64,000 nt of DNA. It comes from Nannocystis sp. RBIL2. Its GTDB lineage: Bacteria; Myxococcota_A; Polyangia; Nannocystales; Nannocystaceae. The notes beneath the pieces are model-generated. The model was not told the DNA's origin. It ran no database searches and saw only the letters and a list, made by a program, of their open reading frames with translations. The stretch spans positions 1,126,151 to 1,190,150 of the forward strand of contig NZ_JAPNJW010000002.1 of the NCBI RefSeq assembly GCF_026626745.1, in the 5' to 3' direction. The position numbers and the translations under genes are program-made. This document shows positions 1,554 to 43,768 of the stretch, one piece after another (position 1 is the first letter of the stretch; each line of letters starts with the position of its first letter).

Positions 1554-2075
1554 TCAGTCGTCGCCGTAGTCGTCGTCGCGCCGCCGGCCGCCGCGACCGC
1601 CACGGCCACCGCCGCCGCCGCCGCCACGACCACCGCCGCCGCCGCCGCCGCGACCACCGCCGCCGCCGCCGCCGCCGCCATAGCCGCCGCCGCCGCCGCC
1701 ACGACCACCGCCGCCGCCGCCGAAGTCACGGCCGCCACCGCCGCCACCGCCACCGCGGGGACCACCGCCACCGCCCTGGAAGCCGCCCGACGGGGCACGC
1801 TCGACGAAGGGCCGCGAGGGCCGATCGCTGCGGGCGCGCTCGACCGCGGCATCGCAGCGGATGGTCCGCCCGTCAAGCACCGCGCCGTTCATCGCCTCGA
1901 GAGCGGCACGACCGGCCGTCTCATCGGCGAACGTCACGAACCCGAAACCACGGCTGCGCATGGTCTCCTTGTCCTTGACGACGATCGCCTCGTCGACCTT
2001 ACCGAAGGGTTCAAAGGCCGCGCGCAGGCTCTCGTCGCCCGTCGCCCACGCCAGTCCACCGACGAAAATTTTCAC
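1554..2075 (-). CDS. RRM-domain RNA-binding protein with Gly/Arg-rich (RGG) tail
   Basis: MKIFVGGLAWATGDESLRAAFEPFGKVDEAIVVKDKETMRSRGFGFVTF supplies the RNP2 and RNP1 motifs. The C-terminus is (G)n-R repeats encoded by GCC/GCG-rich DNA at 1560-1800. Confidence 0.85.
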   Translation of the reverse strand: MKIFVGGLAWATGDESLRAAFEPFGKVDEAIVVKDKETMRSRGFGFVTFADETAGRAALEAMNGAVLDGRTIRCDAAVERARSDRPSRPFVERAPSGGFQGGGGGPRGGGGGGGGRDFGGGGGGRGGGGGGYGGGGGGGGGRGGGGGGGRGGGGGGGRGGRGGRRRDDDYGDD

Positions 2076-2388
2076 TTCTGTCTCTCTCCTATTCTCTCTT
2101 CACTGCACGCCACGTCGGCCGTGGCTCGCGGCGCCCTGAGCGGGACCGCGTCGTTGCGTCGACACTCCACAAGCGACACGCCGGACGCACACGTGCGACG
2201 CGACCGGAGGGAGGCCGGCTGCGACCCGGCGGGCTCCGTGAGTGCCGATTGAGGTCATGACCAGGGGCAGGATCCGCCCTCGGCCCGGGCCCTGTCAACC
2301 TCCGCGAACCCCTCCGGCGGCGATTTCACCTCACGCGGCCGGGGCCTGGAATTCACCTCACCCCCTGGAAGTCGGCGGGCCGGCGGCC

Positions 2389-4425
2389 ATGCCGCGCCGA
2401 CCTCCACGGCCCGGTGGATCGCCTCGCAGGCCGGCGCACGCCGAGGTGGGCGTGTCCTCCCCCACAATTGCCGCGCCGGCGGCCCGGGCGGAGGTAGAGT
2501 CCCGCCCCGTGCCGATCGCAAGCCTGCGCCAGGTCGAAAAGAGCTACGGCGTCCGCCGCGTCCTCGCCGGCGTCAACCTCACCTTGATGACCGGCGAGCG
2601 CGTCGGGCTGGTCGGCAACAACGGCTCGGGAAAAACCACTCTGGCGCGGATCCTCGCCGGACTGGACGCCCCCGACGCCGGTGAAGTGGTCCTCCGCCGC
2701 GACGCCGCGATCGCCTACCTCGAGCAGGAGCCGCGCCTCCCACCCGGCCTCACCGCCCTCGAAGCCGTCCTCAGCGGCCTCGGCCAGTGGTCTGCCGCCC
2801 GCGCCCGCTACGACGCGGCCACCGGGAGCCTCGAGGGGGCCTCCGGGGCGGCGATCGACGCCCTGGTGGCCGAGCAGGCGGCCGCCGCCGCGGAGATCGA
2901 GCGCTGCGGAGGTTGGTCGCGGGCGGCGGAGGCCGAGTCGTACCTCGCGCGCCTCGGCGTCCGCGATCCCGCCGCGCCGACCGAGCGCCTCAGCGGCGGC
3001 GAGCGGCGCCGCGTCGCCCTCGCGGCCCTGCTGGCGCGCCGGCCCGACCTCGCGGTGCTCGACGAGCCGACCAACCACCTCGACGTCGCCGCGATCGAGT
3101 GGCTCGAGCGCCACCTCGCCGAGGACTACAGCGGCGCCGTCCTCCTCATCACCCACGATCGCTACATCCTCGACCGCGTGTGCACGCGGACCTTCGAGGT
3201 CGACCGCGGCGAGGTCTACGCCTACGACGGGGGCTTCGGCGCCTACCTCGAGGCCAAGGCCGAGCGCATGGCCCACGCCCAGCGCACCGAGGCCAACCGC
3301 CAGAACTTCCTCCGCCGCGAGCTCGAGTGGTTGCGGCGCCAGCCCAAGGCGCGGACCACCAAGCAGACCGCGCGCGTCAACCGGGCCGAGGCCGAGCTGG
3401 CCAAGTCGGGCCCGCAGCGCGACCGTCGGGTCGAGCTGTCCCTCGAGGCAGCTCGCAGCGGCAAGACGATCCTCGAGCTGCGCGGCGTCACCCTCGAGCT
3501 CGGCCGCGTGCTCGTCCGCGACTTCACCCTCGCGCTCAACCAGGGCGAGCGGATCGGCGTCGTCGGCCCCAACGGCAGCGGCAAGACCACCTTGCTGCGC
3601 TCGATCGTCGGCCAGCTTCCTCCGACCGCCGGCGAGGTCGTCCGCGGCAAGCACACCGCGATCGCCTACCTCGACCAGAACCGCTCCGGCCTCGACGACG
3701 ATCGCAGCGTCTACGACAACATCGCCGAGCGGCGCCGCGGCCTCGAGCTCGGCGGCGGTCACCCGCTCGACATCGCCCGCTACCTCGAGCGCTTCCTCTT
3801 CGACCCGTCCGCCTACGCCCAGAAGGTCGGCTCGCTGTCGGGCGGCGAGCGGGCTCGCGTCGCCCTCGCGGTGCTGTTGTCGGGCGCCTCCAACCTCGTC
3901 CTCCTCGACGAGCCGACCAACGACCTCGACGTCGCCACCCTCGGCGCGGTCGAGGAGATGCTGCTCGACTTCGCCGGCGCCGCGATCATCGTCACGCACG
4001 ATCGCTGGTTCCTCGATCGTGTCGCCACCTCGATCCTCGCCTTCGAGGGCGACGGCAAGGTCGTGCGCCACCACGGCAACTACAGCGACTACCTCGAGCG
4101 CCTGGCCGAGACCGAAGCGGCCGCCGAACCACAGCCCGTCGCACGAACCACGCCTGCGGCCGCCAAGGCCTCTGCGCCCGCCGCGAAGCGCGGCCTCAAC
4201 TACTCCGAGAAGCGCGAGCTCGAGGGGCTCCTCGGCAAGATCGAGGCCGCCGAGGGCGAGGTCCAGGAGCTCGAGGCCAAGCTCGGCGATCCCACCGTCT
4301 ACAGCGCCGGCAAGGACCAGGTCGCGGAGCTGGTGCGCAAGCTCGACACGGCCCGTCAGCGCGCCGCCGCCCTCGTCACGCGCTGGGAGGAGCTCGAGCA
4401 GCGGAGCGCGGACGCCGGGGCCTGA
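2389..4425 (+). CDS. ABC-F family ATPase (two ABC domains, Uup/EttA-like)
   Basis: Two Walker A motifs ([18 protein letters not shown]) and two LSGGE signature motifs, with a C-terminal coiled coil. The ORF opens at 2242 but the true start is probably ATG 2389 or GTG 2508; the N-terminus is uncertain. Confidence 0.85.
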
Positions 4426-4506
4426 CGTCGCGGCGCGGCCGGCGTCCCGCGCGTCCGCGGACTTTATCCGCTTGGGTGTCCGCGCAACTGCTTCTATCCT
4501 GCCCTC

Positions 4507-5877
4507 GTGCCCCGCCTCGCTCTGGTCGCGCCGTTCGCCCTCGTCCTCGCCTCAGGCCCCCTCCTCGTCGACACCGCGCAGGCCGGCCCGGTCCAGTTCG
4601 TCGAGCAGCGCAAGAACTTCATGGTGTTCGACGACGACGGCACCGTCGAGCACGCCAACTGGTTCTCGCGCACCGGCTTCTATAACGGCTACAACCCGCT
4701 CGAAGAGGGCTTCCTCGCCGCGCACCCGGACGACGCCCAGTTCATCGTCGTCTACTCGACCTTCAACCTCGTCGACGGCGTCGGCGCCTTCTATCAGGCG
4801 CTCGCCAACGACGTCGCCGGCATCGGCTACTCGCACGCCGCCGACTTCGACCCGGTGATCCCGGCCGAGTTCTTCGACGACACCCCGAACAGCCAGTTCA
4901 TCGGCATGCTGCACATGAACAACTGGCGGAAGTTCATCAAGACCGGCACCGAAGAGATCGACGACTGGTGGATCTCGCTGGTGTTCGGCCAGGAGCTGGG
5001 CCACGCGTGGCTGGCCTTCCCGCACGTCGCCGGCGGCGGCAACACCGAGCTGCTGCTCGGCCGCTCGCAGGCCCACTGGAACTTCTACATGCACACCAAC
5101 GGCTCGCCGGTCGAGGGCCACCGCTGGACCGACAACGGCGACGGCACCTTCACCGCGGACAAGCTCGACCAGTTCGAGTTCAGCGACCTCGACCTCTATC
5201 TCATGGGCCTCATGGACCCCTCCGAGGTGAAGCCGTGGTTCGTCATCGAGGACCCGCACGACTGCGTCGACTCCGCGCTGCCCAACCAGGCCTGCCCCGA
5301 ACCCAACTCGTTCCTCTTCAAGGCCGAGAGCTTCACCGTCAGCGGCACGCGGCGCGACGTCACCGTCGAAGAGGTGATCCAGGCCGAGGGCGAGCGCGTC
5401 CCCGCCTACCCCGACGCTCCCAACGAGTTCGGCATCTCCTTCGTCCTCCTCAAGCGCCCGGACGAGGTCCTGTGCGAGGAGGAGTACGCAGTCATCGACG
5501 AGATCGTCGACCGCTCGATCAATATGTGGGTCGGCCAGACCCGCGGCCGCGCCAACATCATCAACCGCACCTTCAGCGCCGACCCGATCCGCCCCGGCGT
5601 GTTCTGCGAGGCCGGCACCACCACCGGCAGCGACGACACTGGCGCCGATCCGACCGGCAGCGACGACACGGGCCCGACCGAGCCGACCACCACCGCCACC
5701 ACTGCTCCGACCACCTCGAGCAGCAGCAGCAGCGGCGGCCGCGACGAGGACAGCGACGGCGACACCAGCGGCAGCAACACCGACAGCGGCTGCGGCTGCC
5801 GCTCCCACGAGCCCGCCCCAGCCCTCGCCCTGCTGCTCGCCCTCGCTGCCATGCGTCGCCGCCGCGAACGCACCTGA
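4507..5877 (+). CDS. secreted protein with C-terminal MYXO-CTERM-type sorting signal
   Basis: N-terminal signal peptide ([26 protein letters not shown]). There is a Thr/Ser/Asp-rich linker, and the C-terminus is [29 protein letters not shown] (Cys motif, hydrophobic helix, Arg cluster). Confidence 0.7.
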
Positions 5878-8581: not shown

Positions 8582-8738
8582 ACGTCGTCCTGGACGAGCG
8601 CGGTCGGGCAGGTCCTTCGGGACATGTCCGGCCGCACATGTTTTTAAAGTCAGGCATCGCGGGCGGCGCGCGCGCGATACGACCTTTTGACTTGTTCGTC
8701 CGCTCGACCCGGATCAGAACTCGGGCGGAGGAACCATC

Positions 8739-32305: not shown

Positions 32306-35300
32306 TTGAATCCCGACGAGCCCCAGGCCCGCGCCTCGCTGCCGGTGACGCCACCTGTCCCTGAGGACATCCTTCCGCGTCCGCTCGGCCGCTACGAGCT
32401 GGTGCGTCGGGTCGGCTCCGGCAGCATGGGCGTCGTCTACGCCGCGCTCGATCGCGACAGCGGCCGCACCATCGCGGTCAAGACCCTGCACCAGCTCGAC
32501 CCGGGCGCGCTGTTCCGCCTCAAGAACGAGTTCCGCAGCGCCGCCGGCCTGTCGCACCCCAACCTCGTCAGCCTCCACCAGCTCGTCTCGCACGACGACG
32601 AGTGGTTCATCACCATGGAGTTCGTCGACGGCGTCAGCTTCGTCGACCATGTCCGTCAGGGCATGTCCGAAAAGCCAGGCGCTGCGCCGCCGCCGGAGCG
32701 CCTGCGCCCGGCCCTGCTGCAGCTAGCCGCCGGCGTCAGCGCCCTGCACGCCGCCGGCAAGCTGCACCGCGACCTCAAGTCGTCGAACGTGCTGGTGACC
32801 GCCGATGGCCGCGTCGTCATCCTCGACTTCGGCCTCGCCGCCGACGACGTCGCCGAGGGCGGCGAGGACGGCCTGCTCGGCACGCCGGCGACGATGGCGC
32901 CGGAGCAGGCCGCCGGCAACCCGGCCTCGCCCGCGAGCGACTGGTACGCGATCGGCGTCATGCTCTACGAGGCGCTCACCGGCCGCCTGCCGTTCACCGG
33001 CCCGCCGCTCGCGATCCTCCACGCCAAGCAGCACGAAGATCCGGCCCCGCCGCAGGCGCTCGTGCCCGACGTCGATCCGGAGCTGGCGACCCTGTGCGTG
33101 GGCCTGCTGCAGCGCGACCCGGCCGCGCGGCTCGGCGGCGCCGACATCCGCGAGGCCCTCGGCGAGGCCCCGCTCGGCCCCACCGAGTCGGGCGCGCGCT
33201 TCGTCGGCCGCGACGACCTGCTGTCGGCGATGCGCGACGCCTTCCAGCTCGCGCTCGCCGGCTCGCCGGTGTGCGTGTACGTCCGCGGCCGCTCCGGCAT
33301 CGGCAAGACCGCGCTCATCGATCGCTTCATCGCCGAGCTGCGCCGCAACGACCGCGCCTTCGTCCTCCAGGGCCGCTGCTACGAGCGCGAGAGCGTGCCG
33401 TACAAGGCCTTCGACAGCGTCCTCGACGCGCTCGCGCAGCACCTCCGCCACCTCCCGCAGGAGGAGGCCGCGGCCCTGCTGCCGCGCGAGATCCACGAGC
33501 TCACGCGGCTGTTCCCCGTCCTCGCGCGCGCCCCCGTGGTCGCCGATCTGCCGCAGCGCAACTTCGTCGCCCCCGACCCGCAAGAGGCACGGCGTCGGGC
33601 CTTCCGCGGGCTCAAGGAGCTGCTGGCGCGGATCGCCGATCGCCGCCCCCTGGTGCTGCGGATCGCCGATCTCCAGTGGGGCGACGAGGACAGCGCGCGC
33701 CTGCTCGCCGAGCTGCTGTCGCCGCCCGATCCGCCGGCGATGCTCTTCATCGGCTCGTACCGCATCGACGAGGACGACGCGCCGATGCTCCGCGAGCTGC
33801 GGCGGCTCGGCGCGCGGCCCGAGCTCAAGGCTCTGGTGCGCGACCTGCTGGTCGAGCCGCTCTCGCCCGATCAGGCCGAGGAGCTCGCGCTGGCCCGGCT
33901 CGGCCGTGACAGCGACAGCGCCCGCGCCGAGGCGCGCCGGATCGCCGCCGAGTCGGGCGGCAACCCGCTGTTCGTCGAGGAGCTCGCGCGCCACATCGCC
34001 GGTCACCGCGGCGCCGCGCCGGCCGAGGTCTCGCTCGACGCGGTCGTGCGCACTCGCCTCGCCGGCCTGCGCGCCGCGGGTCGCAGCCTGCTCGAGATCG
34101 TCGCCATCGCCGGGCGGCCGATCCCGCCGAGCCTCGCGTTCACGGCCTCGGGCGTCACCGATCGCTCGGTCCTCGGCGAGCTGCAGGCGCAGCACCTGCT
34201 GCGCACTCTGGCCTCGCGCAGCGGCGACACCGTCGAGTGCTATCACGACCGGATCCGCGACACCGTGCTGGCGCAGCTCGACGGCGAGCGCCAGGCGCAG
34301 CTGCACCGCACCCTCGCCGACGCGCTCGCGCAGTCGGCCGACGACCCCGAGCTGCTGGCGCACCACCTCCACGCCGCCGGCGCCTTGAAGGAGGCGCACG
34401 CCGCCGCCGTCGCCGCCGCCGAGCGGGCCGCCGCCGCGCTCGCGTTCTACCGCGCCGCCCAGCTGTACGGCCGCGCCCTCGCGTGGGCGCCCGACCTCCC
34501 GGACGACGAGCGCCGCGCCCTCCTCCGCCGTCGCGCCGACGCGCTCGCGCTGGCCGGTCGCAGCGCCGAGGCGGCCCCGGTCTACGCCAGCGCCGCCGAG
34601 GGCGCCTCGCCGGCCGAATCACTCGAGCTGCGCCGCCGCGCCGGCGAGCAGTTCCTCGTCAGCGGCAACATCGACCAGGGCGTGCGGATGCTGCGCCCCG
34701 CGCTGGTCGAGGTCGACCTCGGCTACCCGGCCACGCCGGGCCGCGCCAACATGTCGATCATCACCCGCTCCACGCAGCTCAGCTTGCGCGGGCTCGGCTT
34801 CGCCGCGGTGCGCGAGGAGCAGGTCCCGCCGGCCGATCTGCTGCGCCTCGACGTGTGCCTGTCGGCGGCCGTCGGCCTCGCCTTCGTCGATCCGATCCGC
34901 GGCTACAGCTTCTACCAGCGCGGCCTCCTCCTGGCCCTTCAGACAGGTGAGCCGCAGCGCATCGCCCGCGCGCTCGCCGGCGTCGGCGCCATGATCATGA
35001 GCCGCGGCACCGCCAACGCCGTCAGCCGCGGCACCACCCTGCTCAAGGAGGCGCGCCGCCTCGCCGAACAGATCTCGGAGCCGCGCCTCATCGGCCTGTG
35101 CGAGATCGTCGACGCCATCGCCGCCGTCTCGCTCGGCCGCTGGCGCCGCGCGCTCGAGCACTGCGAGCAGGGCGCCCAGATCCTGCTCGACCGCTGCGTC
35201 GGCGTCGGCTGGGAGCTCGACCTCGCCCGCATGAGCACGATGCGCGGCCTGTTCATGCTCGGCGAGCTGGCCGAGCTCGGCCACCGCGCCCACGCCTGGC

Positions 35301-35992
35301 TGCGCGAGTCGGAGGACGCCGGCGATCTGTGCGGCGAGGTCTGGTCGGCCCTCTACAGCGCCTACGCTCTGCTCGGCGCCGACGACATCACCAGCGCCCG
35401 CGACCGCGTGCGCGGGGCGATGCGCCGCTGGTCGAAGGAGGGCTTCCACTTCCAGCACATGCTCGCGCTGCTCCTCGAGACCTCGTGCGACCTGTACCAA
35501 GGGCAAGGTGGCTCGGCCTGGCAGCGTCTGGCCGAGAACTGGGTCGCCGTCGAGAACTCGTACATCTTCGGCTGGCAGGGCCAGCGGATCCTCTTCCTCC
35601 ACGCGCGGGGCCTCGCCGCCGTCGCGGCCGCGCGCGAGCAGCCGCACAACGCCGGCGTCCTGCTCGCCGCCGCCGAACGCGACGCCGCGCAGCTCGAGGA
35701 GGACCGCGCGCTGCGCCACGACTCCGTCGCCATGGCCGCGCTGATCCGGGCCGGCATCGCCGCACAGAACGGCGACATCCAGCAGGCGCTCGTCCGCCTC
35801 GAGGCCGCCGCCGCCAGCTTCGACACCGCCGACATGCCGGTCCACGCCGCCTGCGCCCGTCGCCGCCGCGGCGAGCTGCTGGGTCCCAGCGGCGCCACGT
35901 TGATCGCCCAGGCCGACCAGTACCTCGCCTCGCGGGCCATCCTCCGCCCCGCGCAGTGGAGCGCGATGTACAACGGCAGCGCGCCCACCTGA
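32306..35992 (+). CDS. large Ser/Thr protein kinase with AAA+ (STAND/AAA_16) ATPase and TPR-like regulatory domain (PknK-like)
   Basis: N-terminal Hanks kinase (GSGSMGVVY, VAVK, HRDLKSSNV, DFG, APE). It has a Walker A (GRSGIGKTAL) and a long helical/TPR region. TTG start at 32306, or GTG at 32347. Confidence 0.85.
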   Translation: MNPDEPQARASLPVTPPVPEDILPRPLGRYELVRRVGSGSMGVVYAALDRDSGRTIAVKTLHQLDPGALFRLKNEFRSAAGLSHPNLVSLHQLVSHDDEWFITMEFVDGVSFVDHVRQGMSEKPGAAPPPERLRPALLQLAAGVSALHAAGKLHRDLKSSNVLVTADGRVVILDFGLAADDVAEGGEDGLLGTPATMAPEQAAGNPASPASDWYAIGVMLYEALTGRLPFTGPPLAILHAKQHEDPAPPQALVPDVDPELATLCVGLLQRDPAARLGGADIREALGEAPLGPTESGARFVGRDDLLSAMRDAFQLALAGSPVCVYVRGRSGIGKTALIDRFIAELRRNDRAFVLQGRCYERESVPYKAFDSVLDALAQHLRHLPQEEAAALLPREIHELTRLFPVLARAPVVADLPQRNFVAPDPQEARRRAFRGLKELLARIADRRPLVLRIADLQWGDEDSARLLAELLSPPDPPAMLFIGSYRIDEDDAPMLRELRRLGARPELKALVRDLLVEPLSPDQAEELALARLGRDSDSARAEARRIAAESGGNPLFVEELARHIAGHRGAAPAEVSLDAVVRTRLAGLRAAGRSLLEIVAIAGRPIPPSLAFTASGVTDRSVLGELQAQHLLRTLASRSGDTVECYHDRIRDTVLAQLDGERQAQLHRTLADALAQSADDPELLAHHLHAAGALKEAHAAAVAAAERAAAALAFYRAAQLYGRALAWAPDLPDDERRALLRRRADALALAGRSAEAAPVYASAAEGASPAESLELRRRAGEQFLVSGNIDQGVRMLRPALVEVDLGYPATPGRANMSIITRSTQLSLRGLGFAAVREEQVPPADLLRLDVCLSAAVGLAFVDPIRGYSFYQRGLLLALQTGEPQRIARALAGVGAMIMSRGTANAVSRGTTLLKEARRLAEQISEPRLIGLCEIVDAIAAVSLGRWRRALEHCEQGAQILLDRCVGVGWELDLARMSTMRGLFMLGELAELGHRAHAWLRESEDAGDLCGEVWSALYSAYALLGADDITSARDRVRGAMRRWSKEGFHFQHMLALLLETSCDLYQGQGGSAWQRLAENWVAVENSYIFGWQGQRILFLHARGLAAVAAAREQPHNAGVLLAAAERDAAQLEEDRALRHDSVAMAALIRAGIAAQNGDIQQALVRLEAAAASFDTADMPVHAACARRRRGELLGPSGATLIAQADQYLASRAILRPAQWSAMYNGSAPT

Positions 35993-36193: not shown

Positions 36194-36303
36194 ACCGCCG
36201 CGCATCGGCCCGCGCGAGGCCCTGGCCGACGCGTGTGACCTCGCGCCCGCGGCGCCCGCCTTGCCGCGCGCGACAGTGCGCCACTATCCTGCGCGCGCTC
36301 GCC

Positions 36304-37500
36304 ATGGATCTCACGCTCGGCACTCCTCTGTCTCCCTCGTCCACACGGCTGCTCCTGCTCGGCTCGGGCGAACTCGGCCGCGAGGTTGCGATCGAAGCCA
36401 TGCGCCTCGGCGTCGAGGTCATCGCGTGCGACCGCTACGCCAACGCTCCGGCGATGCAGGTCGCGCACCGCAGCCACGTGTTCGACATGCAGGACCGCGA
36501 CGCGGTGCGGGCCGTCGTCGCCCGCGAGAAGCCCCACTACATCGTCCCCGAGATCGAGGCCATCGCCACCGACGCGCTGGTCGAGCTCGAGAGCGAGGGC
36601 TGGGCAGTCATCCCGACCGCGCGGGCCACCCGGCTCACCATGGACCGCGAGGGCATCCGCCGCCTCGCCGCCGAGCAGCTCGGCCTGCCGACCAGCCCGT
36701 ACGCCTTCGCCGACACGCGCGAGGAGGTCGAGGCCGCGGTCCAGCGCCTCGGCCTGCCGTGCGTGATCAAGCCCGTCATGTCGAGCTCGGGCAAGGGTCA
36801 GAGCACCGTGCGCACCGCCGCCGACGTCGCCGTCGCGTGGGAGTACGCGCTGTCGGGCGCCCGCGGCCGCTCGGCCCGCGTCATCGTCGAGGGCTTCGTC
36901 CCGTTCGACTACGAGATCACGCTGCTCACGATCCGCACGCGCCACGAGGGCACCCTGTTCTGCCCGCCGATCGGCCACCGGCAGGAGCGCGGCGACTACA
37001 TGGAGTCGTGGCAGCCGCACGCGATGGCGCCGCAGGCCCTCGCCCGCGCGCAGGAGATCGCCGCCGCAGTCACCGAGGCGCTCGGCGGCGCCGGCCTGTT
37101 CGGCGTCGAGCTGTTCGTCGTCGGCGACGACGTCATCTTCAGCGAGGTCAGCCCGCGCCCGCACGACACCGGCATGGTCACCATGATCACGCAGGATCAG
37201 AGCGAGTTCGAGCTGCACGTGCGCGCGATCCTCGGCCTCCCGATCGGCCAGGTCATCCTCCGCGCGCCCGGGGCCTCCGCCGTGGTCCTGGCCGATCGGC
37301 CAGGCACCAACCCGCGCTTTACCGGCGTCGGCAAGGCGCTCGCCGACCCGCGCACCAAGATCCGCCTGTTCAGCAAGCCCGACACCCGCAAGTACCGGCG
37401 CATGGGCGTCGTCCTGGCCTACGGCGACGACGTCGCCGAGTGCCGCGCCCGCGCCGAAGCAGCCGCCGCCGAGATCCGCGTGGTCGTCGACGCCGGCTGA
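36304..37500 (+). CDS. purT: formate-dependent phosphoribosylglycinamide formyltransferase (GAR transformylase 2)
   Basis: ATP-grasp fold. PurT-specific N-terminus ([24 protein letters not shown]) and PurT-type C-terminus. Confidence 0.9.
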
Positions 37501-37514
37501 GCATTGCGACTTCG

Positions 37515-37690
37515 GGACATGTCACTCGCTACATGTCTCATGCGGCATGTCTTTATCGACATGTCGCATGGTCCATCCGCGTTCTCTCTGAGGATCGCCG
37601 TTGGCGGCCGCACTCTCGGCGACGCCAGACGAGCGACTGCTTGCGATCGGACATGTCGTCACGACATGTCCCAGAAGCCATGAGAGCGAG
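37515..37690. repeat. dense cluster (>=8 copies) of ACATGTC half-sites incl. strict 14-bp phased array
   Basis: CATG at 37518, 37532, 37546 and 37560 (period 14), then 37567, plus GGACATGTCGTC and CGACATGTCCC at 37648-37675. Lies between the convergent purT and 37736 genes. Confidence 0.85.
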
Positions 37691-37735
37691 TCCGCCGTGG
37701 CTCGCCCCAGCGGCCGCGCTCGGAGGAAGAGCGGC

Positions 37736-39058
37736 TCACTGGTCGAACAGCTCGAGCAGCGTGCGCAGCCCCGGCGAGCCGGGTGCCTGTGGCTTCTCGG
37801 CCAGCGCGCGGCGGATCTCGAGGTGCGCCGCCGGCAGGATCGACTGCAGCTGCTCGAGCGCCTTCGAATCGTCGCTCTGGGCCGCTGCCACCTTCGCCCG
37901 CACCCGCTCGCTCCCGGGCCTCGCGAGCCGCTGGCCGACGTCCCACGCAGTCACCACCGCGCCTGCTCCGAGGGACATGTCCCCGAGTTCATCGTGGCGC
38001 AGCTTCGCCGGTCGCCCGCTCGCCAGCACGTCCAGCCGGCCCAGAGTAAACCGCTGCCCCGCCTGCAGCTCCGACGCCCGGCCCGCGCGCAGCAGCGTCA
38101 CGCCCGCGTCGACCACGGTCAGAGACAGCGTCGCCTCGACCGTCCACGTCCCCGCGTCGATCTGCGGATAGTGCCCCTTCGCCGCCGCCAGCAGCCCCTT
38201 CGGCACCTTCAAGCCCGAGTAGCCGACCGGCGGGGCTGCCTTGCTGCGCCACGCAGTGAACTCGATCGGCCCCGTCTCGAACTGGCCCTTCAGCAGCGCC
38301 TCGCAGGCCCGCAGGTGCCGCTCGATCCGCCCGAAAAGCTCCGCCCGCTCCGATGCGCTCACCGGCAGCGGCGCCGCCCGGCGCCACACGTAGCCCGCCA
38401 GCCCCGCGTGGTAGAGCGGCAGCGCCTCCATGCTGCTCAGCAGCGCCTGCAGCTCCGCGATCGTCTCGCTGCCGCCTGCCTTGCGCGCCTCCACGTGCGC
38501 CCGCCAGCGGCTGCGAAACGCCTCGCCCTCGGCGCCGCCGGCCGCGTCGGCCAGCGCCTCGAGGGCGGACGCGACCTGCAGCCACCGCGGGTCCTGGGCC
38601 GGCGTCGCCTCCGGCACCGGCACCAGCGCCAGCGCGAACCGCTTGCCCGGCCCGACGGCGAACCCGTCGTCCGCGACGAGCCGCGCCCACCTGCCCAGCG
38701 CCGCCTCGTCGGCCAGCGGGAATGCGTCGGGCCCGAGCGTCGGCGTCGTCCCCGAGCTCTCCGGAGCATTTGCCCCTTGGGACATGTCCTCTTCGACCTG
38801 CTGCGATGGACCTGCCCCAACCGACATGTCCTGAGAGCCCGGCACAGCCCCCTGCCCGTCCGGCTCCTCGCGCCCGCGCAGCCGGTCGGCGCAGCCCTGC
38901 ACGAACACGATCAGCAGCGCGAGCAGCCGGATCGCCGGCGCCGCCGTGCTCGACAGCAGCGCCACGTGACCCCGACGCCAGCGGAGCACCACCGCCGCGG
39001 CCAGCGCGAGCGCCACCGCGAACGAGCCCAGGTCGAGCCACCAGCGCCTCACACCGCC
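37736..39058 (-). CDS. hypothetical membrane-anchored protein
   Basis: N-terminal TM (WWLDLGSFAVALALAAAVVL) with GTG start near 39058, overlapping the rSAM gene end. Contains repeated DMS-x-GAG motifs. Confidence 0.45.
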   Translation of the reverse strand, partial: GGVRRWWLDLGSFAVALALAAAVVLRWRRGHVALLSSTAAPAIRLLALLIVFVQGCADRLRGREEPDGQGAVPGSQDMSVGAGPSQQVEEDMSQGANAPESSGTTPTLGPDAFPLADEAALGRWARLVADDGFAVGPGKRFALALVPVPEATPAQDPRWLQVASALEALADAAGGAEGEAFRSRWRAHVEARKAGGSETIAELQALLSSMEALPLYHAGLAGYVWRRAAPLPVSASERAELFGRIERHLRACEALLKGQFETGPIEFTAWRSKAAPPVGYSGLKVPKGLLAAAKGHYPQIDAGTWTVEATLSLTVVDAGVTLLRAGRASELQAGQRFTLGRLDVLASGRPAKLRHDELGDMSLGAGAVVTAWDVGQRLARPGSERVRAKVAAAQSDDSKALEQLQSILPAAHLEIRRALAEKPQAPGSPGLRTLLELFDQ

Positions 39059-40095
39059 TCCTTGCGGCAGGCGCCGAACGCCTGCTCGCGGCACGGGTTG
39101 CCGTTGCGGGCCTGCAGCCAGCACTCGTGGCCGTCCGAGCACTCGCGGTGGCCGGCGCTGCGGAAGCGCGTGAAGCCGCGGGTCCAGATGTCACGCAGCG
39201 GCCGGTCGCGCACGTTGCCCTCCGACTCGCGCAGGTCGGTGGTGGTGCACGGAAGCACCTCGCCGGTCGCCCCGACGACGCAGGAGATCCGGCCGGCCCC
39301 GCACAGGAACGGCTGGTCGCGGTAGAAGCGATCGTCGGCGCCGGCGCTGCCCCACTCGTTGCACAGCTCGACGTGGAACAGCCCGCGCTTGCGGCGGGCG
39401 AACGCGGCCACGCGGCGCAGCTGCTCCGGCGTCGGACACAGCGCGGTGTGCTCGGCGCCGCGGCCCTCCGGAGCGAAGAGATGGAGGCCCCACGAATCGG
39501 CCCCCGAGGCTGCGACGATCGGGAACAGGTCGGCCAGGCGGTCGGCGTTCTCGCGCGTCACGGTCGTCCCCGCCACCACCTCCGGACAGCCGCACTCCTT
39601 GAGCGTGCGGATAGCAGCCAGCGCCGCCGCGTGGCTGCCCTGGCGCCCGCGGAACAGGTCGTGCTGCCGCTGCTCGCCGTCGAGGCTGATCGCCGCCAGA
39701 GTCGGCGGGTGGCGTTCGAACAGCGACCTGAACTTGGGGACATGTCCCCCGTGCGTGTGCATCGCCCACTCGAGCCCCTGCGCCCGCGCGTGCGCTACGA
39801 TCTCGGCGATGTCGCGGCGCAGCAACAGCTCCCCGCCCGCGATCACGAAGGTCGGCCGGCCGAGCGCCACCAGCTCGTCGACCACCAGACGGATCGCCTC
39901 CTGCGTCGTCAGCTCGCCCTCGGCCCGCTTGCCCGCGCCGGAGTAGCAGTGCGGACAGCGGAGGTCGCACATCGCAGTGGCGATCCACTGCACCGCGAGC
40001 GGCCGGCGGACCAGTCGGAGCGCGTGCAGCAGCCGCGTCTCGGTCTCCCAGACCTCGGGCGCGGCGCGAGCATACAGACGGTGGAGCAGGCCCAT
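39049..40095 (-). CDS. radical SAM protein with C-terminal SPASM/twitch Cys cluster
   Basis: CxxxCxxC radical-SAM motif (CDLRCPHCY) and C-terminal cysteines (CGAGRISC…C…CSDGHEC…C…C). Confidence 0.8.
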   Translation of the reverse strand: MGLLHRLYARAAPEVWETETRLLHALRLVRRPLAVQWIATAMCDLRCPHCYSGAGKRAEGELTTQEAIRLVVDELVALGRPTFVIAGGELLLRRDIAEIVAHARAQGLEWAMHTHGGHVPKFRSLFERHPPTLAAISLDGEQRQHDLFRGRQGSHAAALAAIRTLKECGCPEVVAGTTVTRENADRLADLFPIVAASGADSWGLHLFAPEGRGAEHTALCPTPEQLRRVAAFARRKRGLFHVELCNEWGSAGADDRFYRDQPFLCGAGRISCVVGATGEVLPCTTTDLRESEGNVRDRPLRDIWTRGFTRFRSAGHRECSDGHECWLQARNGNPCREQAFGACRKEAV

Positions 40096-40111
40096 GCCCG
40101 CGAGGATAGCC

Positions 40112-41434
40112 TCACACCGCCGCGCGCGCGCGGGCGTGGGCGATCGCGCGGAAGCTCGGATCGTCGCGGCGGAACGCCAGCGTGGCCAGGAGCGCCAGCG
40201 CCCACAGCACCGCGATGTGGAGGAACATCGTCTCGCCGCCGTAGTGCTTGAACAAAAAGCCCGACACCAGCGGCCCCGCGAGCGTGCCGAGCCCGTACGA
40301 GCCGTTCAGCAGCGCGTTGCTGCGGCTGAAGTCGCGCGGGTCGACGATGAGGCTCTGCAGCGCCAGGCTCATCGGCCAGATCGGCGCCAGCGAGGCGCCC
40401 GCGAGCAGCACCGCGACCGCGACCAGCCAGAGCGTCGGCAGGTAGACCAGCGACGCCGTCAACACCACCCCGAGCCCCACCAGCGAGCGCACCGTCTTGA
40501 GGTGGCCGTAGCGATCGCCGAGACGGCCGACGAACACCACGCTGGCGGCCATGCCGATCGAGAAGAACGCCACCAAGAAGACGGTATCTTCTTCCTTGAC
40601 CCCGCGAGAGTTGATCAAGAACAGAGGAAGGAACAGCACCATCGACGCCTGGAAGTAGCCGTAACAGAACGTCGGGATGCAGGCCGTCTTGATCCGCCAG
40701 TACAGCTTCAGGATCGGCGGATGACGTTCGATGGCGGCCTCGGGTCTCGGGGCTTCGTCCGCGTGCTCGTGTCCATGACCACTACCGGTGATCGGCTGGA
40801 TGTCGCGGTCCAGGAACACGTAGGCGATCAGCGCCGCCAGCGAGGCGAACAGCCCCGCTGCCACGAACACCATCGGCATCGGATAGATCAGCATCACGAT
40901 CCACCCGATCACCGCACCGAGGGCGTAGCCGGTCGACATCGAGATCGTGTAGAGGCTGGTGATGAGCCCGCGATGCGCGGTCGTCGTGCGCATCAGCAAC
41001 ACGGTCTCGAGGCTCACCCACACGCCGACCGAAAAAGCGCCGTCGAACCCGCGCGCCGCTCCCAGCCCGAGCAGTGTGGCGAGGAACGGGAAGATCGCGG
41101 TGGCCGTCGCGTATCCGAGGAGCCCGAGCGACAAGATCATCCGCGGCGCGAAGCGCTGGATCGCCTTGCCCATCGGCACCGAGAAGAGGGCGATACCCGC
41201 GGCGAAGAACATCGCCAACACGCCGATCGTCTGCGTATCGATGCCGCGGACCTTGTTCAGGTAGACGGCCACGACCGCGGTCACCATCCCGTAGGCCGTC
41301 CCGGTCATCGCGCACACCACGTACGCCGCGCGGATGTTCGAGTCGCGCAGCTCGGTGTGCCAGAGCTGTTGCAGCTCGTTGCGGACCTTGGACCACTGCC
41401 CTGCGGGCGTGGGGGGCGAGACCGTCGTCGTCAT
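40112..41434 (-). CDS. MFS transporter
   Basis: 12 predicted TM helices. MFS motif A-like GRLGDRYG. Confidence 0.85.
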   Translation of the reverse strand: MTTTVSPPTPAGQWSKVRNELQQLWHTELRDSNIRAAYVVCAMTGTAYGMVTAVVAVYLNKVRGIDTQTIGVLAMFFAAGIALFSVPMGKAIQRFAPRMILSLGLLGYATATAIFPFLATLLGLGAARGFDGAFSVGVWVSLETVLLMRTTTAHRGLITSLYTISMSTGYALGAVIGWIVMLIYPMPMVFVAAGLFASLAALIAYVFLDRDIQPITGSGHGHEHADEAPRPEAAIERHPPILKLYWRIKTACIPTFCYGYFQASMVLFLPLFLINSRGVKEEDTVFLVAFFSIGMAASVVFVGRLGDRYGHLKTVRSLVGLGVVLTASLVYLPTLWLVAVAVLLAGASLAPIWPMSLALQSLIVDPRDFSRSNALLNGSYGLGTLAGPLVSGFLFKHYGGETMFLHIAVLWALALLATLAFRRDDPSFRAIAHARARAAV

Positions 41435-41521: not shown

Positions 41522-42211
41522 TCACTCCTTGTCGCGGACCGTGTCGCCGCTGCAGGACTTGGTCACGTCGAGCGGCAGCATCGCAGGGTCTTCGAGGCGC
41601 ACTGCGGCGAAGGTCGAGCCCTTCAGGGTGGACATGAGGGGGCTCATCAAATCGCCCTCGATTTCGCCGCAGAAGAAATCCTCGTCGATGATGGTGGCGA
41701 TCATCCTGAGCGTCGCCTCGATGTCGCCGCCGGTCACCGGGTTGGCCATGCCGGTCACCTTCACCACGCCGGCGTCGATGTCGAACTTGCCGTCGACGAT
41801 CGGGATGTCTTCGTAACACAGCGGGTCGCCGATCGGCTCGCGCGGCACGTTGACCTTGCCCGCCGTGAGGCTGAGCGGCTGCAGGCAGGCGGCGAGGAAG
41901 GTGTTGCCCATCTCGTCGGTGGTCAGCGTATTGGTGGCGATGAACTGCAGCGGCAGGTCGCGGGCGATGACCGTCGACACTGCCAGCAGGAAGTCGCCGC
42001 TGATGTCCGCCTGGGCGGGCATCACGTCCGGGGGCGGCGGCGGCATGAAGTCGCGGTCGTCCTTGGTGTTGTCGAGGAATTCGTTGAACTTGGCCTCGGA
42101 GTCGGGGCACCCCGCCATGAGCGGCACCAGCAGCGACAGACCGAGCACCGAGCCGGGGACCCGAGGGCCGAACACGCGGCGGACAGAAAACGATCGGGAC
42201 ATCCTGCGCAT
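41522..42211 (-). CDS. lipoprotein
   Basis: Internal ATG at 42211 gives MRRMSRSFSV…LLVPLMAGCPD, a lipobox. The upstream portion of the 695-aa ORF is antisense to the OMP gene. Confidence 0.5.
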   Translation of the reverse strand: MRRMSRSFSVRRVFGPRVPGSVLGLSLLVPLMAGCPDSEAKFNEFLDNTKDDRDFMPPPPPDVMPAQADISGDFLLAVSTVIARDLPLQFIATNTLTTDEMGNTFLAACLQPLSLTAGKVNVPREPIGDPLCYEDIPIVDGKFDIDAGVVKVTGMANPVTGGDIEATLRMIATIIDEDFFCGEIEGDLMSPLMSTLKGSTFAAVRLEDPAMLPLDVTKSCSGDTVRDKE

Positions 42212-42295
42212 CACTCTGCCGTGCATTTTGTCCGCCGTAAAGCAGTGACCTCGGTGTAAAGTGGCGCCGGTTTGTCGCCGTACGAGGTCACCTTC

Positions 42296-43768
42296 ATGTC
42301 GCTCGCTCGTCATGCGTCTCGCTCGCGCACCCTCTTCGCCTGTGGCCTGTTGACCGCCGCGCTCGTCGGCGCGAACGAGGCCCGGGCATCCGGCCTCAGC
42401 ACCGCTCGATTCGGCGGCGAGCATGGCCACGTGACCACCGACAACCCGACTGCGATCTACTACAACCCCGCGGGTATCGCGCTGAAGCCCGGTACGCGGA
42501 TCTTCGTCGACGGCAGCTTCGCGGCGCGCTGGGTCAGCTACGACCGACCGGAGTCGGCCATCAGCAGCGAGACCGGCACGCCCGAGGGGGCCACCGACGC
42601 CAACGCCGGCGTCGCCAAGCTGTCCAACTTCATCGCCGGCCCGTTCGCCGGCGCCAGCTCGGACTTCGGCACCAAGTTCTTCTCGGCCGGCGCCGCGGTG
42701 TACTTCCCGTTCGGCGGCCAGTCGACGTGGAAGCCCAACGAGAAGTACCGCGGCAGCCAGGACTACCCGGGCGCGGTCGACGGCGTGCAGCGCTGGCACA
42801 CCATCGACGGCAAGTTGCGCTCGATGTACATCACCGGCGCGGTCGCCTTCAACATCGCCAAGATCGGCCTGTCGATCGGTCTGTCCGGCAGCGCCATCCG
42901 CAGCGAGGTCGACACCATCCGGGCCCGCAACGCCGACGGCACCGACGACCTCGTGCAGTCCAACGGCCACCTCCAGGAGGGCCGCAGCTGGCTCAAGGCA
43001 TCGGGCTGGCAGGGCAGCTTCGGCATCGGCGCGATCTGGAACTGGCGCGACAAGCTGTGGATCGGCGCCTCGTACACCAGCCGGCCCAACATCACCGGCA
43101 ACATGACGCTGAAGGGCGAACTCAGCAACGCCCTCGCGGACGCCCCCGTGTCCCCCGCGACGCCGATCGAGCTGCAGCAGCGCCTGCCCGACATCGTCCG
43201 CTTCGGCTTCCGCGTCCGCCCGGTCCCCAAGCTCGAGCTGCGCCTGTTCGGCGACTTCACCAACTGGAAGGTGATGGACAAGCAGTGCGTCCTCGACGCC
43301 AGCAAGGCCGACCGCCAGTGCGACTTCGCCAACGCCGACACCGCGCTCACCAACCCTGAAGGGTACGGCGGCGACACTCCGAACGACAACGTCAAGGCCG
43401 TCACCCAGAACCTCCCGCGCTTCTGGAAGCCGGCCGGCGGCGTCCGCTTCGGCGCGAGCTACTGGGTGATCGAGGCCGTCGAGCTGTACGCCGGCCTCGG
43501 CTTCGACTCGACCGCCGTCCCGGTCCAGACCATCGAGCCCGCCCTGCTCGACTCCAACAAGATGACCTTCTCCCTCGGCGGCCGGTTCCGCCTGCACCAG
43601 CGCCTCCACCTCGGCTTGACCTTCACCGACATCGCCTACTTCAAGGTCGACACCAAGGGCCGGAACGTCCTCAACAAGTTCCAGGCGCCGACGAAGGCCG
43701 CCAGCGCCGACGGCATCTACAAGCAGAACATCTTCCTGACCAACCTGTACCTCGACGTGAACTTCTGA
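42296..43768 (+). CDS. outer-membrane transport protein, FadL/OmpP1/TodX-like beta-barrel
   Basis: Signal peptide, an N-terminal AIYYNPAG motif and a terminal aromatic residue (…LYLDVNF). Confidence 0.65.
   Translation: MSLARHASRSRTLFACGLLTAALVGANEARASGLSTARFGGEHGHVTTDNPTAIYYNPAGIALKPGTRIFVDGSFAARWVSYDRPESAISSETGTPEGATDANAGVAKLSNFIAGPFAGASSDFGTKFFSAGAAVYFPFGGQSTWKPNEKYRGSQDYPGAVDGVQRWHTIDGKLRSMYITGAVAFNIAKIGLSIGLSGSAIRSEVDTIRARNADGTDDLVQSNGHLQEGRSWLKASGWQGSFGIGAIWNWRDKLWIGASYTSRPNITGNMTLKGELSNALADAPVSPATPIELQQRLPDIVRFGFRVRPVPKLELRLFGDFTNWKVMDKQCVLDASKADRQCDFANADTALTNPEGYGGDTPNDNVKAVTQNLPRFWKPAGGVRFGASYWVIEAVELYAGLGFDSTAVPVQTIEPALLDSNKMTFSLGGRFRLHQRLHLGLTFTDIAYFKVDTKGRNVLNKFQAPTKAASADGIYKQNIFLTNLYLDVNF

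Follow-up and report, generated by a model that had tools for sequence, protein, structure and literature searches.

The 64,000 nucleotides from Nannocystis sp. RBIL2 considered here (contig NZ_JAPNJW010000002.1, positions 1,126,151 to 1,190,150; the window, in what follows) have a base composition of about 70% G+C and carry, head to tail on the minus strand, genes for a transporter of the major facilitator superfamily (MFS), a radical S-adenosylmethionine (rSAM) enzyme and a bitopic membrane protein, for which ‘partner’ is used below. All three open reading frames (ORFs) are where a first-pass annotation of this DNA had placed them, though their junctions needed some correction. The MFS gene (40112-41434; 440 aa; PF07690, E=1.7e-48) stops 16, and not 17, nt before the ATG of the rSAM gene (39049-40095; 348 aa; PF04055, E=6.5e-17), the product of which has a SPASM/Twitch-type C-terminal domain (PF13186, 32 bits against a cut-off of 21.5). 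The rSAM stop codon and the GTG start of the partner gene (37736-39052; no Pfam or NCBIfam match) have 4 nt in common, GTGA, where an overlap of about 10 bp had been given, and that GTG specifies a protein of 438 rather than 441 aa, in agreement with the NCBI gene call (P0121; P numbers denote protein entries and L numbers loci). The entries for the rSAM (P0001) and the partner (P0121), both 100% identical to the products of the window, are from Nannocystis sp. ILAH1. With its 16-nt gap the MFS gene is probably co-transcribed with that for the rSAM in the window; it is outside the conserved module. The functional unit is a two-component combination of rSAM and partner, and not an rSAM-plus-exporter cluster.

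How widely does this pair occur, and what travels with it? In a survey of one genome per species, 185,579 species in total, the rSAM family is represented by 50 loci, with 56-99% identity to the enzyme of the window, and the hosts are by name nearly all Myxococcota (including Nannocystaceae, Polyangia and Kofleriaceae) or Planctomycetota (including Gemmataceae, Phycisphaeraceae and Pirellulales), with one metagenome-assembled genome (MAG) labelled as a Nealsonbacteria bin. The family is sharply bounded, the best 120 database matches all being at least 61% identical. A profile search placed the partner gene directly downstream of the rSAM gene in 45 of 51 loci, in the two phyla. As for the six remaining loci, four are on contigs that end at the rSAM gene, one has an unrelated rSAM of 29% identity, and just one (L022) is a real exception. 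In tblastn searches with the neighbouring genes of the window, the C-terminal approximately 250 aa of the partner were found to be encoded right after the rSAM almost everywhere. At about 25 loci, again in both phyla, the stop codon of the one and the start codon of the other overlap by 4 nt (ATGA or GTGA), and it is the recurrence of this overlap elsewhere that validates the start of the 438-aa product. At seven loci (L009, L010, L013, L019, L021, L034 and L048) the two are fused in a single ORF of 750-800 aa, and an entry found with the partner profile, P0142, is a called fusion of 783 aa with PF04055 and PF13186 in its N-terminal part. The partner family comprises about 210 representatives (sequence clusters) in a library of 1.84 billion proteins, and 11 of the best 150 of those 210 are fusions, with the rSAM N-terminal in every one. 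Across both phyla identity is 56-73% for the rSAM and 21-41% for the partner. The pair in the window has all features of the module, i.e., adjacency, the hydrophobic segments, the Arg-rich loop and the W-x-S-K-A, G-T-W and R-L-D motifs that are described below. Neither Pfam (2025) nor NCBIfam 20.0 nor the literature that could be searched gave a description of such a pair.

Is there a third conserved gene? When ORFs of 80 aa or more, from 8 kb to either side, were clustered all against all, none emerged apart from Ser/Thr kinases and a few sporadic families. In 11 lineage groups such kinases are encoded no more than 8 kb from the pair, possibly by chance, as kinases are so abundant in these phyla. 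By tblastn, the MFS gene, a lipoprotein gene upstream of it, a FadL-like gene, purT and a kinase gene of the window are shared only with the closest Nannocystis genomes. The MFS gene precedes that for the rSAM only in L001, L002, L006 and L045, and unrelated genes take its place at every other locus, including those of Nannocystis MAGs whose rSAM is 83% identical. The neighbours at five inspected loci are likewise unrelated, with ParDE, hemC, an extracytoplasmic function (ECF) sigma factor, cytochrome c, NeuB and BamA among them. Small ORFs fare no better. Those of 15-110 aa that lie up to 1.2 kb on either side of the pair were clustered over 46 loci, and they clustered only between near-identical genomes; the gaps of the window itself have only ORFs generated by a palindromic repeat, GACATGTC, to which we return. 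The first-pass observation that there is no obvious precursor peptide is thereby strengthened, the small ORFs in the flanking gaps being without conserved counterpart elsewhere, and its suggestion that an unannotated small ORF might be the substrate is not borne out. As neither a third gene nor a small ORF is conserved, the pair is considered self-contained.

Some members of the family depart from the common arrangement. In L039, behind a single rSAM gene, there are two tandem partner paralogues (about 2060-3361 and 3383-4675) that are 62% identical, the first of which has lost the W-x-S-K-A motif and kept G-T-W and R-L-D; its contig, labelled Candidatus Nealsonbacteria, is probably from a mis-binned planctomycete. 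The partner gene is in two frames in L045 (9042-10400, Nannocystis pusilla Na p29) and in L043, due to either a sequencing frameshift or a pseudogene, and the split in L045 may explain the shorter N. pusilla entries P0126 and P0127 (347-364 aa). In a planctomycete member (L029, 9053-10903; P0251) the conserved domain is followed by ankyrin repeats over about 150 aa (PF12796, E=1.3e-18), the only additional domain met in the partner family.

The enzyme has what defines the radical SAM superfamily: PF04055, the CX3CX2C motif and, in an AlphaFold2 (AF2) model built from 63 homologues (mean predicted local distance difference test, pLDDT, 92.4; predicted template modelling score 0.90), alternating beta and alpha elements. 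The CX3CX2C motif (39946-39969) is C43-X3-C47-X2-C50, ligands of the SAM-binding [4Fe-4S] cluster, and it is invariant in 63 of 63 homologues. The label rSAM/SPASM, given in the first-pass annotation, is right as far as the matches to PF04055 and PF13186 are concerned, but the full seven-Cys SPASM motif is not present. The auxiliary-cluster, SPASM-like, region (residues 265-335; 39091-39303) has C265-X12-G-X4-C283 and then C325-X9-C335. The first of these is a first SPASM half-motif, C-X9-15-G-X4-C, with C265, G278 and C283 all invariant; the second half, i.e., the CX2CX5CX3C block and distal Cys that would bring the number to seven, is absent from the 63 homologues. In that set C265, C283 and C325 are conserved at 100%, C335 at 92% and C272 at 86%, and 73% of members have a Cys at position 319 or 322. 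Probably, to judge from these residues, the auxiliary site is a reduced SPASM/Twitch one with a single auxiliary cluster. Nor does the enzyme have a PqqD-like RRE (the recognition element for precursors of peptides made by the ribosome and modified after translation, RiPPs): there is no PqqD match and the core begins at about residue 39, as against about 100-115 in SkfB and CteB. In place of an RRE is an extension of about 35 aa with two helices, of which residues 1-27 (MGLLHRLYAR..EVWE.ETRLLH; 40015-40095) include the invariant M1, R6 and E19 and have AF2 helices at 3-10 and 12-25. This extension possibly contacts the partner or the membrane.

To which family of rSAM enzymes does it belong? 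Against NCBIfam 20.0 no model reached its cut-off, so that, in answer to a check that the first-pass annotation had proposed, the enzyme falls in no curated family. The highest score is from AhbD, with 127 bits against a cut-off of 500 and coverage of the core only (residues 35-217), followed by TIGR04053 (120 against 395) and NirJ2 (118 against 500); lower scores include those of TIGR04133 (114.5 against 425; residues 34-325), MftC (109 against 265), StsB (103 against 625), PqqE (86 against 381), SkfB (67 against 300), AlbA (53 against 850), WgkB (48 against 650) and PapB (47 against 340). No model for anaerobic sulfatase-maturating enzymes (anSME) is among the 25 best matches. Compared with solved structures, a profile of 24 homologues matched SkfB best (E=1.4e-26) and also CteB, PqqE (over its full length), BlsE, GDGT-MAS and anSME. 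By Foldseek the nearest fold is again that of SkfB (E=1.6e-17, TMq 0.68, 23% identity), followed by CteB, BlsE, DesII, PqqE, SuiB and anSME. Because no NCBIfam cut-off is reached, the RRE is lacking and the CX2CX5CX3C block is missing, the enzyme is placed, on sequence grounds, in a subfamily of its own in the SPASM/Twitch clade, outside the curated families and with a reduced auxiliary-cluster site.

Several more specific identities were considered and set aside. For PqqE or MftC the models are under cut-off and the inspected loci have neither PqqA/PqqD nor MftA/MftB neighbours; for AhbD or NirJ the models are similarly under cut-off and conserved heme- or siroheme-pathway genes are not nearby, hemC being there at L052 and L053 only. 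A maturase of sactipeptide, ranthipeptide or SCIFF type is not indicated either, as there is no RRE, no adjacent gene for a Cys-rich precursor and no family model at cut-off. PADLOC did not identify the partner and gave only generic viperin-like rSAM similarity, and a defence-system reading was rejected. The hemC genes just mentioned are directly 3′ of the pair and on the same strand (10486-11556 in L052, 3317-4423 in L053, apparently one organism), an adjacency that is suggestive beside AhbD- and NirJ-like scores and that was not seen at other inspected loci.

The partner is without relatives of known kind. Neither the window protein nor 30 diverse members has a match in Pfam or NCBIfam, the best sequence-profile match in the PDB is at E=0.08 (with spurious matches to coronavirus spike), and no fold match was found. 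Five parts can be distinguished. A first transmembrane segment, TM1 (residues 6-23; 38984-39037), is within an AF2 helix of residues 2-26, has a family median of 20 uncharged residues and is absent from the fusions. It is followed by an Arg-rich loop, predicted to be cytoplasmic (24-41; 38930-38983), with the consensus R-G-R-x-V-V-L-R-G-R-W-S-P-R-x-V-R-M, and this the fusions retain. A second hydrophobic segment, TM2 (42-54; 38891-38929), the sole such segment of the fusions, ends in a lipobox-like F-V-Q-G-C. Then comes a poorly conserved low-complexity linker of P, G, S, Q and E (55-110; 38723-38890), with pLDDT below 50 at 60-104 and two copies of GACATGTC in its coding sequence, and finally the conserved C-terminal domain (111-438; 37739-38722), without known fold. 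In order, that domain consists of a helical bundle (116-260), a conserved loop, a seven-stranded beta unit (309-361) and a helical tail (372-437); its near-invariant motifs are W-x-S-K-A-x-P, GTW and R-L-D. The layout TM1, loop, TM2, linker is found in 67 of 89 unfused members, with the linker net-acidic and TM2 shorter than the approximately 20-aa TM1. The 20-aa loop has on average 6.5 K or R against 0.18 D or E, and is moderately conserved, at about 60-80% per position.

Positively charged loops of membrane proteins tend to stay inside, and by this positive-inside rule the Arg-rich loop would be cytoplasmic and the C-terminal domain extracytoplasmic. The partner would thus be a helical hairpin: a short N-terminal tail outside, TM1, the cytoplasmic Arg-rich loop, TM2, and the domain of about 330 aa outside the cytoplasm. 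What of the fusions? Their order is rSAM, hydrophobic segment, linker and domain; TM1 is missing and the loop and second segment are kept. We infer that in them the rSAM replaces TM1 with the same resulting topology: the enzyme would be on the side of the cytoplasm and attached to that same segment through the membrane. From this topology it would follow that the rSAM is held to the membrane on its inner face. No claim is made for processing, by a signal peptidase or at a lipobox, after the second hydrophobic segment. The lipobox-like F-[LV]-x-[GA]-C that ends this segment is confined to a Nannocystaceae-type subgroup, which includes the window protein and all seven fused loci inspected, and the Cys at this position is absent in planctomycete members; an A-x-A is present in 40 of 88 unfused members, which is unconvincing in Ala-rich proteins.

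The conserved loop of the domain, with W268 and K271, reads T-A-W-R-S-K-A-A-P-P (38228-38257) and is a candidate modification site. It is among the best-conserved motifs of the partner, and in 30 sequences of 21-41% identity together with one ortholog of 79%, these two residues are the only invariant columns. From this it could be thought that W and K are the sole invariant residues and hence cross-linked. That argument was weakened by the larger set of 134 representatives, where R339 is at 99%, W303 (38144-38146) at 97%, L340 and W268 at 96%, K271 at 95% and D341 at 94%, with R248 conserved as highly as W268 and K271; R339-L340-D341 constitute a motif in the beta unit (38030-38038). In the AF2 model the 10-residue blocks over 261-280 have pLDDT of 85 and 76, below neighbouring blocks, and the W-x-S-K loop is the least confident part of an otherwise very confident domain model. 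Going by that model, the loop is probably flexible.

What, then, does the pair do? The first-pass annotation had included the membrane protein among possible substrates of the rSAM. That the two belong together is clear from 45 of 51 loci, from their coupling and from their fusion; substrate status is at the level of what can be deduced. Our best guess, and it is a tentative one, is a membrane-tethered rSAM that modifies its own partner protein. The rSAM would dock on the cytoplasmic loop of the partner, or be joined to it covalently, and would use a 5′-deoxyadenosyl radical for one post-translational modification of the partner, either while the partner chain is threaded across the membrane or on the cytoplasmic loop. 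The most likely site would be the exposed, near-invariant W-x-S-K-A-x-P-P loop (W268, K271). Hydrogen abstraction there could lead to a C-C or C-N cross-link, to dehydrogenation or to epimerisation, and the working product would be the mature extracytoplasmic protein, anchored in the membrane or by lipid. The MFS, upstream lipoprotein and FadL-like genes are lineage-specific neighbours. Partner-as-substrate is preferred because a two-gene unit without pathway genes resembles an enzyme-target pair; because the nearest solved relatives of the rSAM (SkfB, CteB, PqqE, SuiB and anSME) modify peptides or proteins; because the enzyme lacks an RRE, as does anSME, which recognises a protein motif directly; and because conservation is far higher in the rSAM than in the partner, where it is concentrated in short motifs, including one on a flexible loop. 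Identities of 56-73% for the one and 21-41% for the other are a pattern typical of a maturase and its target. The single rSAM with two partner paralogues in L039 was also counted in favour. In its most specific form this proposal is a long shot: bound on the cytoplasmic side of the membrane through its substrate's leader-like TM hairpin, or fused to that substrate, the rSAM would generate a Trp/Lys-based cross-link or a protein-derived cofactor at the W-x-S-K loop of a protein of new fold during export. If true, a full-length extracytoplasmic protein would undergo radical maturation that is ‘co-translocational’, and natural membrane-spanning enzyme-substrate polyproteins would be included.

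Known systems provide partial parallels. SkfB, the Twitch-type maturase of sporulation killing factor (PDB 6EFN), shares with the window enzyme an rSAM core and, at the C-terminus, an auxiliary Fe-S domain in which there are not as many Cys as in full SPASM. However, SkfB has an N-terminal RRE of about 100 aa and a leader-containing peptide of 55 aa as substrate, whereas the window enzyme is without a peptide gene and is paired with, or in relatives fused to, a membrane protein. The enzymes anSME and AtsB, which have no RRE, oxidise a Cys or Ser of sulfatases to formylglycine, and so act on a full-length protein destined for export. In contrast, the window partner is neither a sulfatase nor provided with a C/S-x-P-x-R motif, and the window rSAM has a reduced Cys set and one dedicated partner, to which it is linked by gene coupling or, in relatives, by fusion. 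QhpD cross-links residues in the nearby-encoded QhpC, the subunit of quinohemoprotein amine dehydrogenase that carries a Trp-derived cofactor and then works in the periplasm; QhpC is small and soluble, has an ABC transporter dedicated to its export and belongs to an operon that includes the dehydrogenase subunits. Unlike this, the window system has no accessory genes and its partner, of about 440 aa, is membrane-anchored and has no conserved Cys. TIGR04133, ‘rSAM_w_lipo’, for which we know of no function, gives one of the longest NCBIfam alignments, and its name, which implies an rSAM travelling with a lipoprotein, has a counterpart in the lipobox-like Cys of Nannocystaceae partners; but the score is far below cut-off and the window partner matches no NCBIfam model. 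AhbD and NirJ, rSAM-SPASM enzymes that modify tetrapyrroles, have the highest NCBIfam bit scores, yet these are below the 500-bit cut-offs. In operation the system would be most like the protein-directed rSAM-SPASM maturases, anSME with sulfatase and QhpD with QhpC, and in structure nearest to SkfB.

The spacing in the partner loop invites one further comparison. StrB/SuiB (streptide), WgkB and DarE (darobactin) are rSAM-SPASM cyclases that join a Trp and a Lys a few residues apart. The W and K of the loop are three residues apart and SuiB is a structural neighbour of the window enzyme, but those cyclases have an RRE, full SPASM and short peptide substrates. The Lys-Trp bond of streptide, cited in PMC7159879 via PMC5491770, is a precedent in this enzyme clade, but a Trp-Lys link in the partner is speculation.

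Against the partner being the substrate there is much to set. That status is purely what we infer. The conserved domain is predicted to be across the membrane from a cytoplasmic enzyme; modification must then occur either during export or on the cytoplasmic loop, because domain and enzyme would be on opposite sides, and an N-terminal TM segment probably means co-translational insertion with little time for it. R339, L340, D341, W303 and R248 are as conserved as W268 and K271, a pattern that would suit a binding site or an active site in the partner just as well, and a few members are without the W or the K, as is one of the L039 paralogues. Conservation of the rSAM is unusually high for a peptide maturase. 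Lastly, enzymes acting on sugars or tetrapyrroles (BlsE, DesII, AhbD, NirJ) score about as well as those modifying peptides.

Several of these considerations point instead to a small molecule, cofactor or lipid as substrate, i.e., a common metabolite or membrane lipid such as a tetrapyrrole, a sugar or an isoprenoid or acyl chain. The rSAM would act on it where the membrane faces the cytoplasm; the partner would be its anchor, and the outside domain would receive, bind or further handle the product. Though doubtful, it stays a serious alternative because of the topological difficulty, the very high rSAM conservation and the pocket-like residues of the partner: with enzyme and partner domain on opposite sides a hand-off is better suited than direct modification, rSAM identity of 56-73% across phyla is as with a fixed small substrate, and the most conserved partner residues (W, K, W, R, D, R) resemble a ligand site. 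The enzyme being without an RRE is in keeping with it. So are its best NCBIfam scores, those for AhbD, TIGR04053 and NirJ2, and the presence among its neighbours in structure and sequence of BlsE, DesII and the lipid enzyme GDGT-MAS, but the scores are far under the cut-offs (for AhbD 127 against 500 bits) and the single closest solved structure is that of a peptide maturase. The Nannocystis operon is in the company of the MFS transporter, the lipoprotein and a FadL-type outer-membrane channel, and hemC follows the pair at L052 and L053 in apparently one organism; however, none of these neighbours is kept beyond close relatives and no further biosynthetic enzyme accompanies the pair.

Alternatively, the outside domain could be a sensor, with the TM hairpin and Arg-rich loop switching on or off an rSAM that acts on a third, unlinked target. 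The architecture is sensor-like, in that an outside domain and TM segment lead to a short cytoplasmic loop that would bind, or is fused to, a catalytic domain. Genes in the vicinity were also counted in favour: one for an ECF sigma factor is just upstream in L054/L055, a family of ORFs of about 210 aa is common to the upstream regions of L012, L018 and L050, and there are the Ser/Thr kinases within 8 kb in 11 lineage groups. Yet these phyla are so extremely rich in kinases and ECF sigma factors that proximity of such genes is weak evidence, the Arg-rich loop is only moderately conserved (about 60-80% per position) and we know of no precedent for a ligand-gated rSAM. Such transmembrane control is quite improbable.

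What remains of the RiPP-like layout, an rSAM-SPASM plus exporter, that the first-pass annotation had seen here? A classical cluster would have a short unannotated precursor modified by the rSAM and exported by the MFS protein, and the same-strand arrangement with a 16-nt gap, in a SPASM/Twitch clade rich in RiPP maturases, is what prompts the idea. The MFS gene, however, is linked in only four near-identical Nannocystis loci, no small ORF within 1.2 kb on either side is shared by any two divergent loci, the genes of the window leave no room between them, and neither an RRE nor a nearby conserved gene for a protease or leader processing is found; such a cluster is very improbable. The secondary idea of the first-pass annotation, an anSME-like protein modifier, gains from there being a dedicated protein partner, but for a housekeeping anSME serving sulfatases encoded elsewhere the chances are negligible since, notwithstanding the structural relationship (Foldseek E of about 4e-12, 17% identity) and the common traits of lacking an RRE and, for anSME, acting on exported proteins, no anSME model is among the 25 best NCBIfam matches or near cut-off, the seven-Cys SPASM motif is absent, the partner is not a sulfatase (no PF00884) and the family, unlike anSME, is confined to about 50 of 185,579 species genomes.

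There remain features of the surrounding DNA. The palindrome GACATGTC is present in 16 copies in the window, as against 0.67 expected, and none of 100 shuffles reached 16. The copies are at 8621, 13851, 15598, 20356, 29500, 29514, 37516, 37558, 37650, 37663, 37974, 38781, 38823, 39739, 43781 and 61972, eight of them within 37516-39746, and they are often paired, 13-15 nt apart, with one copy at times degenerate. The DMS-x-GAG repeats of the partner, to which the first-pass annotation had drawn attention, do exist in three copies (residues 74-80, 88-94 and 357-363), but the ‘DMS’ repetition is due to copies of GACATGTC being translated within the partner gene. One copy inside the rSAM gene is read in a different frame as GHVP, with the rare codons GGA and CAT, and is conserved in L001-L005 and L045. 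Per 17 kb, there are 11 copies in L001, 6 in L002 and 8 in L045, and 1-2 in the MAG loci with an 83%-identical rSAM, L003-L005; in other genera the palindrome is rare, no locus having more than two copies. Its over-representation looks specific to the genus, be it a REP-like (repetitive extragenic palindromic) element, a protein-binding site or a methylation site. The 235-nt gap at 37501-37735, between the partner gene and the convergent purT (36235-37500, plus strand), has four perfect and at least two imperfect copies. Its folding energy is -113 kcal/mol (z=-3.56; none of 200 shuffles is as stable) and at about 37648-37672 is a perfect hairpin, GGACAUGUCG-UGA-CGACAUGUCC. No Rfam match or canonical terminator was found in this gap, which may be a bidirectional terminator or a REP-like array. 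Rfam, promoter and terminator scans of the locus otherwise gave nothing useful.

Upstream of the MFS gene is one for a predicted lipoprotein of about 226 aa (41522-42200, minus strand; lipobox L-M-A-G-C, no Pfam match), and divergent from it is a gene for a FadL/TodX-type outer-membrane channel (42272-43768, plus strand; PF03349, E=9e-20). MFS transporter, lipoprotein and FadL-type channel together would make an outer- to inner-membrane route for a hydrophobic compound. Linkage of the lipoprotein and FadL-type genes to the rSAM pair is confined to the N. pusilla/punicea/bainbridge group. Beyond purT, two genes from the pair, is a gene for a Ser/Thr protein kinase of 1228 aa with a long C-terminal region (32306-35992, plus strand).

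Enzymes of the rSAM/SPASM class are a main source of new post-translational chemistry, and nearly all characterised ones have, to our knowledge, short leader-containing peptides or soluble small molecules as substrates. Orphan rSAM subfamilies are numerous, but a membrane-spanning fusion of rSAM and partner, the latter of new fold, is out of the ordinary. New here is an rSAM whose only constant companion is a bitopic membrane protein, the conserved domain of which is without known fold and is probably outside the cytoplasm, and also the repeated natural fusion of both proteins through a segment that spans the membrane. The enzyme class is known; the partner and the architecture are unprecedented. 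For annotation there is the warning that a transporter next door is no ground for calling such loci RiPP clusters. As a simple two-gene system with ready-made natural fusions, the module is directly testable. Were the partner the substrate, proteins would here be matured in a new way, and the cross-link or cofactor might be new as well; were it not, this would be a rare membrane-tethered rSAM that couples radical chemistry in the cytoplasm to a protein outside it. In both cases, an unannotated protein family of about 210 sequence clusters, and with it an rSAM subfamily of Myxococcota and Planctomycetota, is now defined.

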